A stretch of 64,000 nucleotides of DNA from Pseudomonadota bacterium. Its GTDB lineage: Bacteria > Pseudomonadota > Gammaproteobacteria > Burkholderiales > JABEVD01. A model generated the notes under the pieces. The model worked only from the letters and a program-made list of their open reading frames with translations, had not been told where the DNA came from and ran no database searches. The stretch lies in assembly GCA_021848825.1 (NCBI GenBank), contig JAJZTQ010000013.1, positions 672-64,671 on the forward strand. Direction: 5' to 3'. Positions 46,037 to 51,946 of the stretch are shown here, piece after piece; the stretch's first letter is position 1, and every line of letters starts with the position of its first letter. Made by a program: the position numbers and the translations under genes.

Positions 46037-48316
46037 ATGTTTCCGCGTTGGCTGCTTTACCTATTTCTGAGCGTGCTGGGCGTGGGTCTGGTTCTGGCCG
46101 GCCTGATCGCCTTTGCCGCCGTGATGACCTATCCCAACCTGCCTTCCCTCGAAGTGCTGAAAGACTACAGGCCCAAGATTCCCCTCAGGGTGTACAGCGA
46201 GGAGGGGGTGCTGATAGGCGAGTTCGGCGAGGAGCGGCGCGCAGTGGTTTCGATCAATCAAGTGCCGAAGCTGATGAAGGAGGCGATACTCGCGGCAGAG
46301 GACGAGCGCTTCTACGAGCATGGCGGGATCGATTACCAGGGCGTGATGAGAGCGGCTTTGGTCAATTTCGTCCATGGCGGATCTCGCCAAGGGGCGAGCA
46401 CGATCACCATGCAGGTCGCGCGAAATTTCTTCCTCTCCAAGGAGAAGACTTTCTCCCGGAAATTCAACGAGGCGCTGCTTTCCTTCAAGATCGAGCAGAA
46501 CCTGACGAAGGACGAGATACTTCAGCTTTACATCAACCAGATCTATCTCGGCCAGAAGGCTTACGGTTTCGCTGCCGCGGCCCAGGCCTATTTCGGAAAG
46601 CCCATGGACAAATTGAGCGTGGGAGAAATGGCGGTGCTTGCAGGGCTTCCCAAGGCCCCATCCAGCTACAATCCGATCGCCAATCCGAAGCGGGCGAAGC
46701 TTCGCCAGCTCTACGTGCTGCACCGGATGCGCGTGCTCGGCTACATCACGGAAGACCAGTATCAGAAGGCTTCGAAGGATCCCATCAAAGTGAGGCACGA
46801 GCGGCACGATTACCCGGTGAAGGCTGAATATCTCGCGGAAATGGTGCGCAAGGACATGTACGACAGGTACAGGGACGCCGCCTATACGCAGGGATACAAG
46901 GTTTACACGACATTGCGCTGGGCCGATCAGGTTGCAGCCTACGATGCGGTGCGCAAGGGGGTGATGGATTACGACGCCAGGCACAGCTACAGGGGCCCCG
47001 AGAAATACGTCGACATTCCGGAGGAAGGGGGCGACAACAAGCTTGACGAGATTCTCGACGATTACGATGCGAGCGGCGAAATCCTGCCCGCCATCGTGCT
47101 CAGGGCTTCGCCTGCAGTGGTGAGAGCTTACGTCAAGGGAGTCGGCCGCGTTTCCATCGAATCGGACGGACTGAAGTACGCAAGGAGGCTGCTCCAGGAA
47201 AATCCTTCCAGGATAAGGCGAAGCGCCATCATCCGGGTGATCAAGGATGCCAGGGGCAAATGGGCCATCACGGAATTGCCTGTTGTCGAGGCAGCGCTCA
47301 TCTCGGTCTCTCCCCAGACGGGAGCGGTCAGGGCGCTCGTCGGAGGATTCGATTTCACCCAGAACCAGTTCAATCACGTGACCCAGGCCTGGCGGCAGCC
47401 GGGTTCGAGCTTCAAGCCCTTCATCTATTCTGCAGCGCTGGAGAAGGGGTTCACGCCTGCAACGATAGTCGATGACGCGCCGCTGGTTTTCACCGCGGAG
47501 CAGACGGGAAGCGTGCCATGGGAGCCGAAGAATTACGAGGGAACCTATTCGGGCCCGATGAGGATCAGGGTTGCGCTCGCTGAATCGAAAAACCTGGTGG
47601 CGATCAGGATACTCCAGGCTATCGGAGCCAATTATGCGCAGGATTACATCACCCGCTTCGGATTCGACCCGAAGATGCATCCGCCCTATCTCACGATGGC
47701 GCTCGGGGCGGGACTCGTGACGCCCTGGCAGATGGCGGGCGCCTATTCCGTTTTCGCAAACGGCGGATACAAGCTCGATCCCTATTACATCGAGCGCATC
47801 GAGGATCAGGAAGGGCATGTCCTTGCCAAGGCTTCCCCTGTCGTCGCTGGTGCAGCCGGGACTTCCCCGGTGATCGATCCGAGGAACGCATTCATCATGA
47901 CGAGCATGATGCAGGATGTGATCAAGTATGGAACGGGGGCGCACGCCATGCAGTTGGGGCGGGCCGATCTCGCCGGAAAGACGGGAACCACCAACGACCA
48001 GGTGGATGCCTGGTTCGCGGGATTCCAGCCGACCCTGACCACGATCGCATGGATAGGCTATGATCAGCCAAAGACATTGGGAAGGGGGGAGACGGGGGCA
48101 CAGGCAGCGCTTCCCATCTGGATGGGCTATATGGGCAAGGCACTGAACGGTGTGCCGGAAGCGACCTTCACCATGCCGCAAGGCGTGGTCGAGGCCAAGA
48201 TCGATCCGCAGACGGGGAAAATCATGACGGGAGACGGCGGCATGGACGAGTATTTTTACCAGGAACTCTTGCCCAAGGCTCAGGTCGCCGGCAAGGTTGC
48301 AGATCCGCTTTTCTGA
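46037..48316 (+). CDS. mrcA: Penicillin-binding protein 1A
   Basis: Transglycosylase motifs AAEDERFYEH and GASTITMQ; transpeptidase motifs SSFK, SKN and KTGT; divergent from pilM. Confidence 0.97.
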   Translation: MFPRWLLYLFLSVLGVGLVLAGLIAFAAVMTYPNLPSLEVLKDYRPKIPLRVYSEEGVLIGEFGEERRAVVSINQVPKLMKEAILAAEDERFYEHGGIDYQGVMRAALVNFVHGGSRQGASTITMQVARNFFLSKEKTFSRKFNEALLSFKIEQNLTKDEILQLYINQIYLGQKAYGFAAAAQAYFGKPMDKLSVGEMAVLAGLPKAPSSYNPIANPKRAKLRQLYVLHRMRVLGYITEDQYQKASKDPIKVRHERHDYPVKAEYLAEMVRKDMYDRYRDAAYTQGYKVYTTLRWADQVAAYDAVRKGVMDYDARHSYRGPEKYVDIPEEGGDNKLDEILDDYDASGEILPAIVLRASPAVVRAYVKGVGRVSIESDGLKYARRLLQENPSRIRRSAIIRVIKDARGKWAITELPVVEAALISVSPQTGAVRALVGGFDFTQNQFNHVTQAWRQPGSSFKPFIYSAALEKGFTPATIVDDAPLVFTAEQTGSVPWEPKNYEGTYSGPMRIRVALAESKNLVAIRILQAIGANYAQDYITRFGFDPKMHPPYLTMALGAGLVTPWQMAGAYSVFANGGYKLDPYYIERIEDQEGHVLAKASPVVAGAAGTSPVIDPRNAFIMTSMMQDVIKYGTGAHAMQLGRADLAGKTGTTNDQVDAWFAGFQPTLTTIAWIGYDQPKTLGRGETGAQAALPIWMGYMGKALNGVPEATFTMPQGVVEAKIDPQTGKIMTGDGGMDEYFYQELLPKAQVAGKVADPLF

Positions 48317-48317
48317 C

Positions 48318-48899
48318 GTGGCCAAGGAGCGCTCGAAAAAATACGAGCAGATGAGGGAACGGATCGCCTATCTCGCCGCAAGGCTTATCGCCGAGGACGG
48401 CATGGACGACTTTTCCCAGGCGAAAAGGAAGGCCGCCCAGCAGATCGGCGCGCCTGACACCCACTGCCTTCCGAACAATGGCGAAATAGAAAAGGCCCTC
48501 AGGACGTTCAGGAATCTCTATCAGCAGGATGAGCATCAGGCGCAGCTCGTTCAGCTCAGGCTTGCAGCGCTCGACCTGATGCGCCTTTTGAATCGCTTCA
48601 ATCCCTACCTTTCAGGGCCCGTTCTGACCGGAACTGCAGGAAAATATTCCGAAATCGATCTTCAGCTCTATACGGACAGCGTCAAGGACGTCGAATTCTT
48701 CCTGATCAACAACAGGATTCCCTATCGATCAGGCGAAATCAGGACGGGATGGGGTTCCGTTCCGGTTTTCAAGCTGGAGCGGGGCGGCATCGAGGCGAAT
48801 GTCGCTGTCTATGCCGAGAATGATCTTCATGCCGTATGGAATCCGCGGATCGCCCGCGCGAAGCTCTCCCAGGTGGAAGAGCTTCTTTCCGAAGGATAA
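48318..48899 (+). CDS. Conserved uncharacterised protein, predicted nucleotidyltransferase fold
   Basis: GTG start just after the mrcA stop; RERIAYLAARLIAEDG, AKRKAA, LSGPVLTGTAGKYSEIDLQL (degenerate hG[GS]x9-13DhD-type motif). Confidence 0.7.
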   Translation: MAKERSKKYEQMRERIAYLAARLIAEDGMDDFSQAKRKAAQQIGAPDTHCLPNNGEIEKALRTFRNLYQQDEHQAQLVQLRLAALDLMRLLNRFNPYLSGPVLTGTAGKYSEIDLQLYTDSVKDVEFFLINNRIPYRSGEIRTGWGSVPVFKLERGGIEANVAVYAENDLHAVWNPRIARAKLSQVEELLSEG

Positions 48900-48900
48900 G

Positions 48901-49908
<1,008 letters not shown>

Positions 49909-49946
49909 TCAAGAATTTTAAAACATAGGGAACTATACTGTAATCC

Positions 49947-50033
49947 ATACGGTCTATTTGCACAGATGATGCTTAATCATCCCCGCTTTCCCCTCTATGA
50001 GCGGGCGTCTTAACTCCAAATAAGACGTTTTTT
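49947..50033 (+). ncRNA. Candidate small RNA, anti-hemB-like motif
   Basis: Two hairpins (GATGAT/ATCATC, 49965-49981; CCCGCT/AGCGGG, 49982-50005) then a terminator (CGTCTTA/TAAGACG, 50006-50027, plus T6). It is on the strand opposite hemB with TATACT at 49934-49939 upstream. No plus-strand CDS lies here. The 5' end is estimated. Confidence 0.55.
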
Positions 50034-50036
50034 ACC

Positions 50037-50083
50037 CCCCTTTCCGGCTTTCTTCCCCTTTTTCCGGAAAGGGGTTTCTTTTT
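50037..50083 (+). terminator. Second plus-strand terminator-like hairpin
   Basis: 11-bp stem CCCCTTTCCGG/CCGGAAAGGGG (50037-50074) followed by TTTCTTTTT. Confidence 0.65.
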
Positions 50084-50672
50084 ATGCCAGCCATTTTCCT
50101 ATGACGAGCTCCGCCTCTTCGATTCCCGTCTTCTTGAGACTGGAAAAAAGCTGGATGGTGCAATTGGGATAATTCTTTTCCAGGAATTGCCGGGCTTCCC
50201 TCAGAACCTTCGTCCCCTGCTGCCTGCTCAGCTTGTCGGATTTCGTGAGCAGGATGTGGATGGGTTTCCCTGTCGGGCCGAACCAGTCGAGCATCTTCAG
50301 GTCGAGCGGCGTGAAGGGATGGCGGGAATCCATGATGAGCACCAGCCCGTGAAGCTGGTTCCGCTCCTGCAGATACCGGCCAAGCAGCGTTTCCCAGTGC
50401 AGCCTGATATCCTCGGGCACTTTTGCGAAGCCGTATCCGGGAAGATCGACCAGGAAGCTTCCTTCACCCAGGCTGAAGTAGTTGATGTGCTGGGTCCGCC
50501 CGGGCGTCTTGCTGACGAAGGCGAGCCTGGTTCTGCCTGAGAGCGTGTTGATCGCGCTCGACTTTCCCGCGTTGGACCTTCCCGCGAAGGCGACTTCGGC
50601 CCTGGAATCCGGGGGAAGATCGCGGAAATGGTTTACCGTGATATGGAATGCTGCATTTCTGAAAAGCGTCAT
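50082..50672 (-). CDS. engB: Ribosome biogenesis GTP-binding protein YihA/EngB
   Basis: [28 protein letters not shown]. Confidence 0.97.
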
Positions 50673-51946
50673 GCTTTGGAAAAATATTTCCTGGCAGCCG
50701 AAAGCGTCTTTTCCATTTCGGCTTCTTCATGCGCGATCGAGACGAATCCGGCTTCGAATGCCGATGGGGCGAAATAGATTCCCTCGTCCAGCATGAAATG
50801 GAAGAAGCGGTTGAATGCCTCTTTGTCGCATTGCATGACTTCCGCATAGCTTTCCGGCGGTGTTTCCCTGAAATAAAGGCCGAACATGCCGCCCACCGAT
50901 TGGGCGGAGAAGGCGATTCCCGCATCCTTCGCAATCGATGCAAGTCCTTCGGTGAGGATCCTCGTCTTTTCGGAAAGCTTTTCGAAGAATCCCGGCGCCT
51001 GGAGAAGCTTCAAAGTGGCAAGCCCTGCCGCCATCGCGACGGGATTTCCTGAGAGCGTTCCCGCCTGATAGACGGGTCCGAGCGGGGCGAGAGATTGCAT
51101 GATTTCCTTCTTTCCGCCGAATGCGCCTACGGGCATGCCGCCCCCTATGACCTTCCCGAGCGTGGTGAGGTCGGGCCTGATGCCGTAAAGACCCTGCGCC
51201 GAGGCGAGCCCGACCCTGAATCCTGTCATCACTTCGTCGAAAATCAGAACGGAGCCGTACTTCGTGCAGCAGTTCCTCAGTGTTTCCAGGAAAGCCTGCT
51301 TCGGTGCGACGAGATTCATGTTCCCAGCAACGGGCTCGATGATCACGGCGGCTATTTTTTCGCCCAGCTTGTCGAATGTTTCCTCGAGCTTTCCGGCATC
51401 GTTGTAATCGAGAACGAGGGTATGCTGGGCAGTTTCAGGAGGAACGCCTGCGGAGCTGGGATTGCCGAAGGTCAGTGCGCCCGAGCCCGCCTTGACGAGG
51501 AGGGAATCCGCATGGCCGTGATAGCATCCCTCGAACTTGACGATCGCGCTCCGCCCGGTATAGCCGCGGGCAAGCCTGATCGCGCTCATGGTCGCTTCCG
51601 TTCCGGAGCTCACCAGCCTCACCTGGTCCATGGAAGGGAGGAGCTCGCAAAGGAGATCGGCCATTTCGAGCTCCAGCCTTGTCGGCGCGCCGAAGCTCAA
51701 GCCGAGCTCAGCCGTTTCGCATACCGCGCGTATCACTTCCGGATGGGCATGCCCGAGTATCATCGGACCCCATGATCCGACATAATCGACATAACATTTT
51801 CCATCTTCGTCCCAGACATGGGCCCCTTTCCCTTTCTTGAAGAAGAGGGGGCTTCCGCCTACCGAACCGAATGCTCGAACGGGCGAATTGACTCCGCCTG
51901 GGATGTGGATGCGGGATTTTTCGAAAAGATTCTGATTGTTCGTCAT
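50669..51946 (-). CDS. hemL: Glutamate-1-semialdehyde 2,1-aminomutase
   Basis: [33 protein letters not shown]-lysine motif TLGKVIGGG. Confidence 0.99.

Follow-up and report, generated by a model that had tools for sequence, protein, structure and literature searches.

An anti-hemB-like small RNA gene with a sigma-E-type promoter motif between hemB and engB in a Burkholderiales genome

What is encoded in the 194-bp gap that separates hemB from engB in a 64,000-nucleotide stretch of Burkholderiales DNA (contig JAJZTQ010000013.1; the whole stretch is called the window below), from which promoter would it be transcribed, and on what would it act? The original prediction, made from the letters alone, placed here a small RNA (sRNA) gene of the anti-hemB kind on the strand opposite hemB, and its description of a 194-bp gap between two minus-strand genes is correct (positions 49888–50081). 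The anti-hemB motif is held in Rfam as RF02837, “Burkholderia RNA 7,” and corresponds to the hemB/anti-hemB motif of Weinberg et al. 2007 (PMC1950547). Its counterpart in B. cenocepacia J2315 is ncS04, a transcript of 105 nt whose transcription start site (TSS) was determined by differential RNA sequencing and whose 3′ end was determined by 3′ rapid amplification of cDNA ends (3′RACE), with detection by Northern blot (Sass et al. 2017, PMC5688073). The family has been on record since 2007, and its expression and Hfq binding have been shown in Burkholderia; neither a regulator nor a target of it was found in the literature searched. According to the data presented here, the best overall explanation, with a probability of about 0.65, is that the gap carries an orthologue of anti-hemB RNA which is transcribed from a sigma-E-type promoter and acts in trans with Hfq. 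The element as such is unremarkable; the new aspects are the putative sigma-E input and the genus-specific remodelling of a seed-like loop.

Membership in the anti-hemB family

The default Rfam scan of the window at gathering cut-offs gave no match. In a permissive scan of positions 49800–50200 (E up to 10) anti-hemB RF02837 was found at 49980–50082 of the plus strand over the full length of the model (positions 1–81 of 81) with 44.1 bits and an E-value of 3.2e-9, the next family being at E 0.36. Default annotation misses the sRNA because 44.1 bits lies under the gathering cut-off of this family, 49.5 bits, which is an operational cut-off and not a biological feature. Thus the covariance scan, which the original prediction had named as its first check, returned the expected family from end to end, although at a score below the curated level. 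When the whole genome (2.74 Mb, 56% G+C) was searched with RF02837, this was the only strong match (E 5.1e-9), followed by a runner-up of 26.6 bits on contig C23. The two stem-loops of the model correspond to the second and third of four hairpins (HP1–HP4) on the plus strand and its terminator corresponds to the fourth, where HP2, HP3, and HP4 with UUUCUUUU all pair; the assignment of these three parts to HP1–HP3, as originally made, has to be shifted by one hairpin.

Matches to RF02837 were obtained in 37 of 41 related genomes, and 25 of these were above the gathering cut-off. Within the genus all nine genomes carry a match at the syntenic site with 37.7–46.5 bits, and since they score alike the sub-cut-off value is a trait of the lineage and not noise. 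Three features account for the low score in the genus: an altered loop 1, an UUU/AAA insertion in the terminator stem, and a terminator loop of 16 nt compared with roughly 12 nt in typical relatives (counted by eye from the alignment). Loop 1 reads C(U/A)UCCCCUCUA(U/C)GA in the window and the eight other genomes of the genus, while relatives outside the genus keep the family motif CCUCCCUGA almost throughout, with rare point variants such as CCUCCUCGA. The genus loop retains the C-rich, CCUC-containing character, and the window RNA shares with the family the C/U-rich loops as well as the U-rich linker and tail.

In nearly all relatives an extra hairpin is located directly 5′ of the Rfam model. 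A covariance model which includes this hairpin (HP1), designated R1, was built from a hand-specified structure with covariance-model realignment; this procedure took the place of a combination of MAFFT and RNAalifold on raw sequences, by which HP2 was mis-paired. The R1 search, whose E-values are rough, yielded 65 loci among 98, including 30 named loci upstream of hemB, from Sideroxydans, Gallionella, Nitrosomonas, Dechloromonas, Rhodocyclaceae, Paucimonas, Variovorax, and Rubrivivax, and a second R1 search added four further loci, one of them in Cupriavidus. Six Methylophilaceae hemB loci (L051–L053, L055, L057, and L059) had no R1 match upstream of hemB. In the alignment of the 65 sequences, which includes the 25 relatives above the Rfam cut-off, 91.4% of the paired cells are filled by pairs, versus 75.7% in shuffles and 30–48% with slid partners, and compensatory double changes, another check that had been named, occur in 29 of 31 pairs. 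All four helices covary, among them HP1 with compensatory changes in 8 of 8 pairs and HP3 with covariation in 7 of 7. As the alignment was fitted to R1, these numbers support the family fold and are not an independent proof of the membership of the window, for which the independent support is the Rfam match together with synteny. The family alignment also contains 131 G-U or U-G pairs against 27 A-C or C-A combinations, and this ratio, the presence of U-tracts after hairpins on the plus strand only, and the plus-facing conserved promoter described below favour the plus strand, which settles for anti-hemB the hemB/anti-hemB orientation ambiguity of Weinberg et al. 2007.

With regard to synteny, the layout with a divergent hemB upstream and a convergent engB downstream is found in 22 of 29 relatives; in 4 of 29 the RNA follows engB in the same orientation and hemB is not in the vicinity, and still others lack hemB or engB. 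The ncS04 gene lies between BCAL0264 (hemB) and BCAL0265 (engB), both directed leftward, and is transcribed rightward (PMC5688073). Thus the window RNA and ncS04 have in common the arrangement of hemB, sRNA, and engB, the 5′ hairpin ahead of the Rfam model, and the order of stem-loops and terminator, while they differ in length (about 120 nt, as predicted, versus 105 nt). According to these data the gap very probably encodes the genus orthologue of anti-hemB RNA (RF02837/ncS04), that is, a divergent member of a known family, and the original identification of an anti-hemB-like gene opposite hemB is borne out by the full-length match, the synteny, the covarying helices, and the ncS04 layout.

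Several other identities of the gap were considered and rejected. A small peptide could be read from a 15-codon open reading frame (ORF), MMLNHPRFPLYERAS, extending across HP1–HP3; the ORF is absent from 28 of 65 relatives, and where it occurs three different frames are used. As the gap sequence has no second copy in the genome, and other genome matches are weak (26.6 bits on C23 and 26 bits on C2), a repeat element or a duplicate was discarded. The weaker of these, an R1 match at L003:1499-1606 of the minus strand (G000:C2:39132-39239), has 26 bits with R1 and 23.7 bits with Rfam and contains a loop-1-like CUUCACUUCCCUGGGCGGG; it is without a sigma-E promoter and without a U-tract and represents chance or a decayed relic. 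Neither ErsA nor Spot 42 appeared in the permissive scan of 49800–50200. Identity with MtvR was dismissed as well, MtvR being restricted to the B. cepacia complex with no link to anti-hemB made, and so was identity with B. pertussis CT_532 (“MicA homologue”), which is RpoE-independent and tied to MicA by its 3′ 46 nt, again with no anti-hemB link made.

Hairpins, transcript, and promoter

The plus-strand fold of the gap has an energy of −54.6 kcal/mol compared with −35.5 ± 3.8 kcal/mol in shuffles (z = −5.07) and consists of four consecutive hairpins. HP1 (49965–49981; GAUGAU-GCUUA-AUCAUC; −4.9 kcal/mol) is the 5′ hairpin outside the Rfam model and is directly followed by HP2 (49982–50005; −10.2 kcal/mol), which exposes the C/U-rich loop 1, UCCCCUCUAU, at 49989–49998. 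Next comes HP3 (50006–50027; CGUCUUA-ACUCCAAA-UAAGACG; −6.1 kcal/mol), the second stem-loop of the Rfam model, with six U residues after it (50028–50033). These begin a U-rich linker read from the sequence as UUUUUUACC (50028–50036), of which U5-6 is kept in the genus and which may serve as an Hfq site or as a weak internal terminator. HP4 (50037–50074) has an 11-bp stem and a 16-nt loop, CUUUCUUCCCCUUUUU, that is identical in 9 of 9 genus genomes; with −18.7 kcal/mol it is much stronger than HP3, and together with the tail UUUCUUUUU (50075–50083) it makes up an intrinsic terminator at 50037–50083, the last 2 nt of the tail overlapping the engB stop codon. Hence the three back-to-back hairpins described originally do exist, and so does the T6 after the third one on the plus strand only, while the fourth and strongest hairpin had been missed.

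The predicted transcript is about 120 nt long and would extend from 49964 to 50083 of the plus strand, where R1 matches 49960–50085. Its TSS is placed at A49964 or G49965 and its 3′ end in the U-tract near 50083. The position of the start follows from that of the −10 element and from the mapped 5′ end of ncS04, which is one nucleotide before a 5′ hairpin preceding CCCGC (PMC5688073). The main end of the RNA is modelled at HP4 with its U-tract rather than at the T6 after HP3, so that the element would continue about 50 nt beyond the end at 50033 that had been proposed for an RNA of about 87 nt. HP3 with its U6 may represent a weak terminator-like module that gives rise to a minor short form or serves as an Hfq site.

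Upstream of this start a promoter motif of the sigma-E (RpoE/ECF02) type is located on the plus strand. It comprises the −35 element GGAACTA (49929–49935) and the −10 element GTCTAT (49952–49957), the latter 6-7 nt upstream of the presumed start, in the spacing GGAACTA-N16-GTCTAT, with 18 nt from GAACT to TCT. The GGAAC(T) core is kept at fixed distance in 54 of 65 members, and the wider motif GAAC(T/C)-N16-18-TC(T/A) is found, at constant distance from the RNA, at 31 of 35 and 54 of 65 loci versus 2 of 1155 control windows of the same loci, the loci without it being mostly of the Comamonadaceae and the Rubrivivax type. Among these, the loci L084, L099, L090, L083, and L088 (Burkholderiaceae/Comamonadaceae/Rubrivivax-type) contain TAAAGT, TATAAT, or TAAATT-like −10 hexamers and a long insertion in HP1 and HP3, which suggests a promoter switch in this lineage.

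The genome encodes the corresponding sigma factor in a nadB<->rpoE-rseA-rseB arrangement (TIGR02939, 314.8 bits; RseA_N and MucB_RseB domains), and its own rpoE is preceded by GTGAACTAA-N-GTCTCT, that is, GAACT-N17-GTCTCT. With a position weight matrix (PWM) built only from sRNA promoters outside the genus, the window site ranks 23rd of about 5.5 million genome positions. Other top PWM sites precede rpoH, dsbC-like, and yccA-like genes, as judged by family scans, and another precedes a gene whose N-terminal sequence we read as that of a bepA-like peptidase. In the relatives rpoE is present in 38 of 41 genomes, in 36 of them above the family cut-off (TIGR02939); two of the four sRNA-less genomes (G020 and G032) are also without rpoE, and the other two (G010 and G029) possess rpoE with no sRNA match. 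RpoE dependence or a sigma-E-type promoter of anti-hemB or ncS04 was not found in the literature searched. Taken together, the motif, its conservation, and its rank in the genome make it probable that transcription of the sRNA is driven by sigma-E.

The same segment contains a candidate sigma-70 promoter of hemB, which was obtained by a consensus scan on the minus strand (49915–49944) with a −35 ATTACA at 49944–49939 and a −10 TAAAAT at 49920–49915; the −10 recurs as TAAAAT/TAATAT in 7 of 9 genus genomes, and this promoter interleaves with the sigma-E-type one. The competition of the sRNA promoter with that of hemB, as put forward originally, is therefore plausible in a modified form, with interleaved sigma-70-like and sigma-E promoters as the competitors.

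Action in trans or in cis, and other explanations

According to the proposed mechanism, envelope stress would activate sigma-E (RpoE) at GGAACTA-N16-GTCTAT and induce the sRNA of about 120 nt, which would act in trans together with Hfq by analogy to ncS04, ErsA, MicA, and RybB. The Hfq binding of ncS04 was described by Ramos 2013 as cited by Sass 2017 (PMC5688073). The C-rich, anti-Shine-Dalgarno-like loops would base-pair with G-rich ribosome-binding sites and thereby reduce translation, and trans pairing of this kind has, by analogy, a little less than an even chance of being the main mode of action. The accessible C/U-rich regions are loop 1 UCCCCUCUAU, the HP3 loop ACUCCAAA, and the HP4 loop CUUUCUUCCCCUUUUU, together with the U-rich linker and the tail. 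A likely side effect is that induction would also lower hemB in cis, since there is an overlap between the sRNA promoter and the probable promoter of hemB, and the sRNA gene is fully antisense to any transcript reading through from engB to hemB.

Candidate targets were sought by computing duplex energies of four accessible regions with 6748 translation initiation regions (TIRs), based on crude home-made gene calls (2577 genes). The best matches with plausible starts were pfp, with 16 bp and one bulge across the Shine-Dalgarno sequence and AUG, and glmM, with 13 bp across the Shine-Dalgarno sequence. The pfp TIR, GCUCAUGAGAGGGGAAAAAUG (G000:C29:52474, plus strand), belongs to a 420-aa gene read from its translation as pyrophosphate-dependent phosphofructokinase; the complementary stretch of the sRNA comprises 16 nt from loop 1 and its 3′ arm. 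GlmM is of the same phosphohexomutase family as AlgC. As a conserved target, glmM was rejected: its complementarity drops to the 7th–69th percentile in the majority of the genus genomes, and in relatives beyond the genus it is close to the median. It does not occur in the text portion of the Sass 2017 supplement.

A number of points weigh against the explanation preferred here. The failure of glmM is one of them, and in the target scan as a whole, crude as it was, no TIR stood out beyond the chance tail (best z of −3.3 to −4.4 among 6748 TIRs). As to the family, the RF02837 score of 44.1 is below the curated gathering cut-off of 49.5, the near-invariant loop-1 motif CCUCCCUGA is replaced by CCCCUCUAUGA in the window, and the R1 score of the window is circular, the window being among the training sequences. 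As to the promoter, the −10 element is GTCTAT and not TCTnA, and the PWM score is moderate (15.1 bits versus 25.2 bits of the top site). Finally, ncS04 was unchanged by quantitative PCR in all conditions of Table 2 of Sass et al. 2017, including osmotic stress and low pH (PMC5688073); however, none of these conditions is a specific inducer of sigma-E.

The alternative that survives best is that the RNA acts mainly in cis, as an antisense to the engB-hemB spacer, so that on its sigma-E-driven transcription hemB would be lowered by interference from convergent transcription, by promoter occlusion, or by RNase III cleavage of the perfect duplex. It would couple heme synthesis to envelope stress and is compatible with action in trans. 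Several features of the neighbourhood are in its favour. The hemB gene (porphobilinogen synthase; 48901–49887, minus strand; NF006762, 510 bits) is divergent from the sRNA gene, and the engB/yihA GTPase gene (50082–50672, minus strand; TIGR03598, 229 bits) is convergent with it. Upstream of engB follow hemL (50669–51946, minus strand) and an ORF that we read as thiE-like, and by ATGA overlaps at 50669–50672 and 51943–51946 of the minus strand the thiE-like ORF and hemL each overlap their downstream neighbour. No terminator of the minus strand was found between engB and hemB within 49500–50500, and HP4 is no terminator for engB since on that strand the hairpin is followed by GGUAAAAAAC. The heme genes hemL and hemB may thus share a transcript that includes engB, and the sRNA gene would lie antisense in the spacer. 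The overlap of the sRNA tail with the engB stop codon, the sigma-70-like hemB promoter interleaved with the sigma-E promoter, and the adjacency of hemB and engB in 22 of 29 relatives point in the same direction. On the other hand, the loops are still conserved in the relatives that have the sRNA behind engB and away from hemB, and also in those lacking hemB or engB, and a near-invariant loop 1 with covarying stems would be needless for a purely cis-acting antisense RNA. Mainly cis action is accordingly rather unlikely, and trans action with Hfq, accompanied by a cis effect on hemB, is preferred.

The transcript envisaged originally, which starts from a sigma-70 promoter with the −10 hexamer TATACT (49934–49939) and ends after about 87 nt at HP3 and T6 (50033), can be given only a very small chance. 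TATACT and T6 are really there, as is the divergent hexamer TATAGT (49937–49932, minus strand), HP3 with U6 resembles a weak terminator, and a short isoform is conceivable, as 3′RACE of ncS04 also yielded shorter products ending in HP3 (PMC5688073). But the plus-strand −35, already called weak, proves not to be usable for TATACT at all, and TATACT drifts within the genus to TATTCT, TATTCA, TATTTC, and TATTTT, while GGAACT of the sigma-E-type −35, which overlaps it, and GTCT are kept throughout the order. The end after HP3 fares no better, HP3 having −6.1 kcal/mol against −18.7 kcal/mol for HP4, which is the Rfam terminator and whose loop is invariant in the genus.

Most improbable and clearly disfavoured is a structure acting on the minus strand, be it a cis-regulatory leader of hemB in the “hemB motif” orientation or a terminator of engB: the gap folds well there too (z = −3.69) and comparable covariation in both orientations was reported (Weinberg et al. 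2007, PMC1950547), but the G-U pairs, 131 against 27 A-C, would become A-C mismatches, no hairpin of that strand is followed by a U-tract, the conserved promoter faces the plus direction, and the transcript mapped in B. cenocepacia is from the anti-hemB strand.

Comparison with envelope-stress sRNAs and further observations

A known sRNA comparable to the window element is ErsA of P. aeruginosa, which is encoded in the polA-engB gap, depends on sigma-22/AlgU and Hfq, and represses algC and oprD (PMC8575079; Ferrara 2015 cited there). Both adjoin engB, and both are small multi-hairpin RNAs thought to act at ribosome-binding sites. They differ in the other neighbour, which is hemB and not polA in the window, and no similarity of sequence or structure was detected between them in the permissive Rfam scan. 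The promoter of ErsA, recognised by an extracytoplasmic function (ECF) sigma factor of envelope stress, is proven, whereas that of the window sRNA is predicted from its motif. Among the ErsA targets algC, oprD, amrZ, and anr, the sole parallel found was glmM, which failed in conservation. With MicA, RybB, and MicL the window sRNA has in common the promoter type, GGAACTT-N16-TCTnA, and the proposed logic, from envelope stress to Hfq-dependent translational repression; neither its sequence nor its fold is related to theirs. In their case the seed is a single-stranded 5′ end, while the C-rich candidate seeds of the window sRNA are hairpin loops.

A wider interpretation, which is tentative, would make anti-hemB a general sigma-E envelope-stress sRNA of Betaproteobacteria that lies beside engB as ErsA does, possibly by common origin. 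In the genus studied here CCUCCCUGA would have been rewritten as CCCCUCUAUGA in the seed loop and the loop of the terminator would have grown, and it is from these two changes that a rewired set of targets would follow, while induction would throttle porphobilinogen synthase. If this is true, envelope stress is linked to the supply of heme. The sigma-E-type promoter, being conserved across most of the order, offers a testable hypothesis for the timing of an orphan sRNA and would class anti-hemB functionally with ErsA, MicA, and RybB. The genus-specific change of an otherwise invariant loop is a natural experiment for target finding. For annotation practice it matters that orthologues escape default Rfam annotation across entire genera, their scores being below the gathering cut-off.

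Two further observations concern other parts of the genome. Beyond hemB, a 200-aa ORF (48297–48899, plus strand) without an NCBIfam match converges with hemB, from which it is separated by a single base (48900). The top PWM site genome-wide, with 25.2 bits, is L156:386-415 (G000:C16:24685, plus strand) and reads TGTGAACTTTT-N17-CAGTCTGAAT. It has no same-strand ORF downstream and reads in antisense direction into the 3′ end of a gene that is prepilin-like as read from its translated N-terminus; a C/U-rich stretch, ACUCCUCCCUCC, follows the site, where neither a terminator nor an Rfam match was found, and the site may give rise to an antisense RNA.

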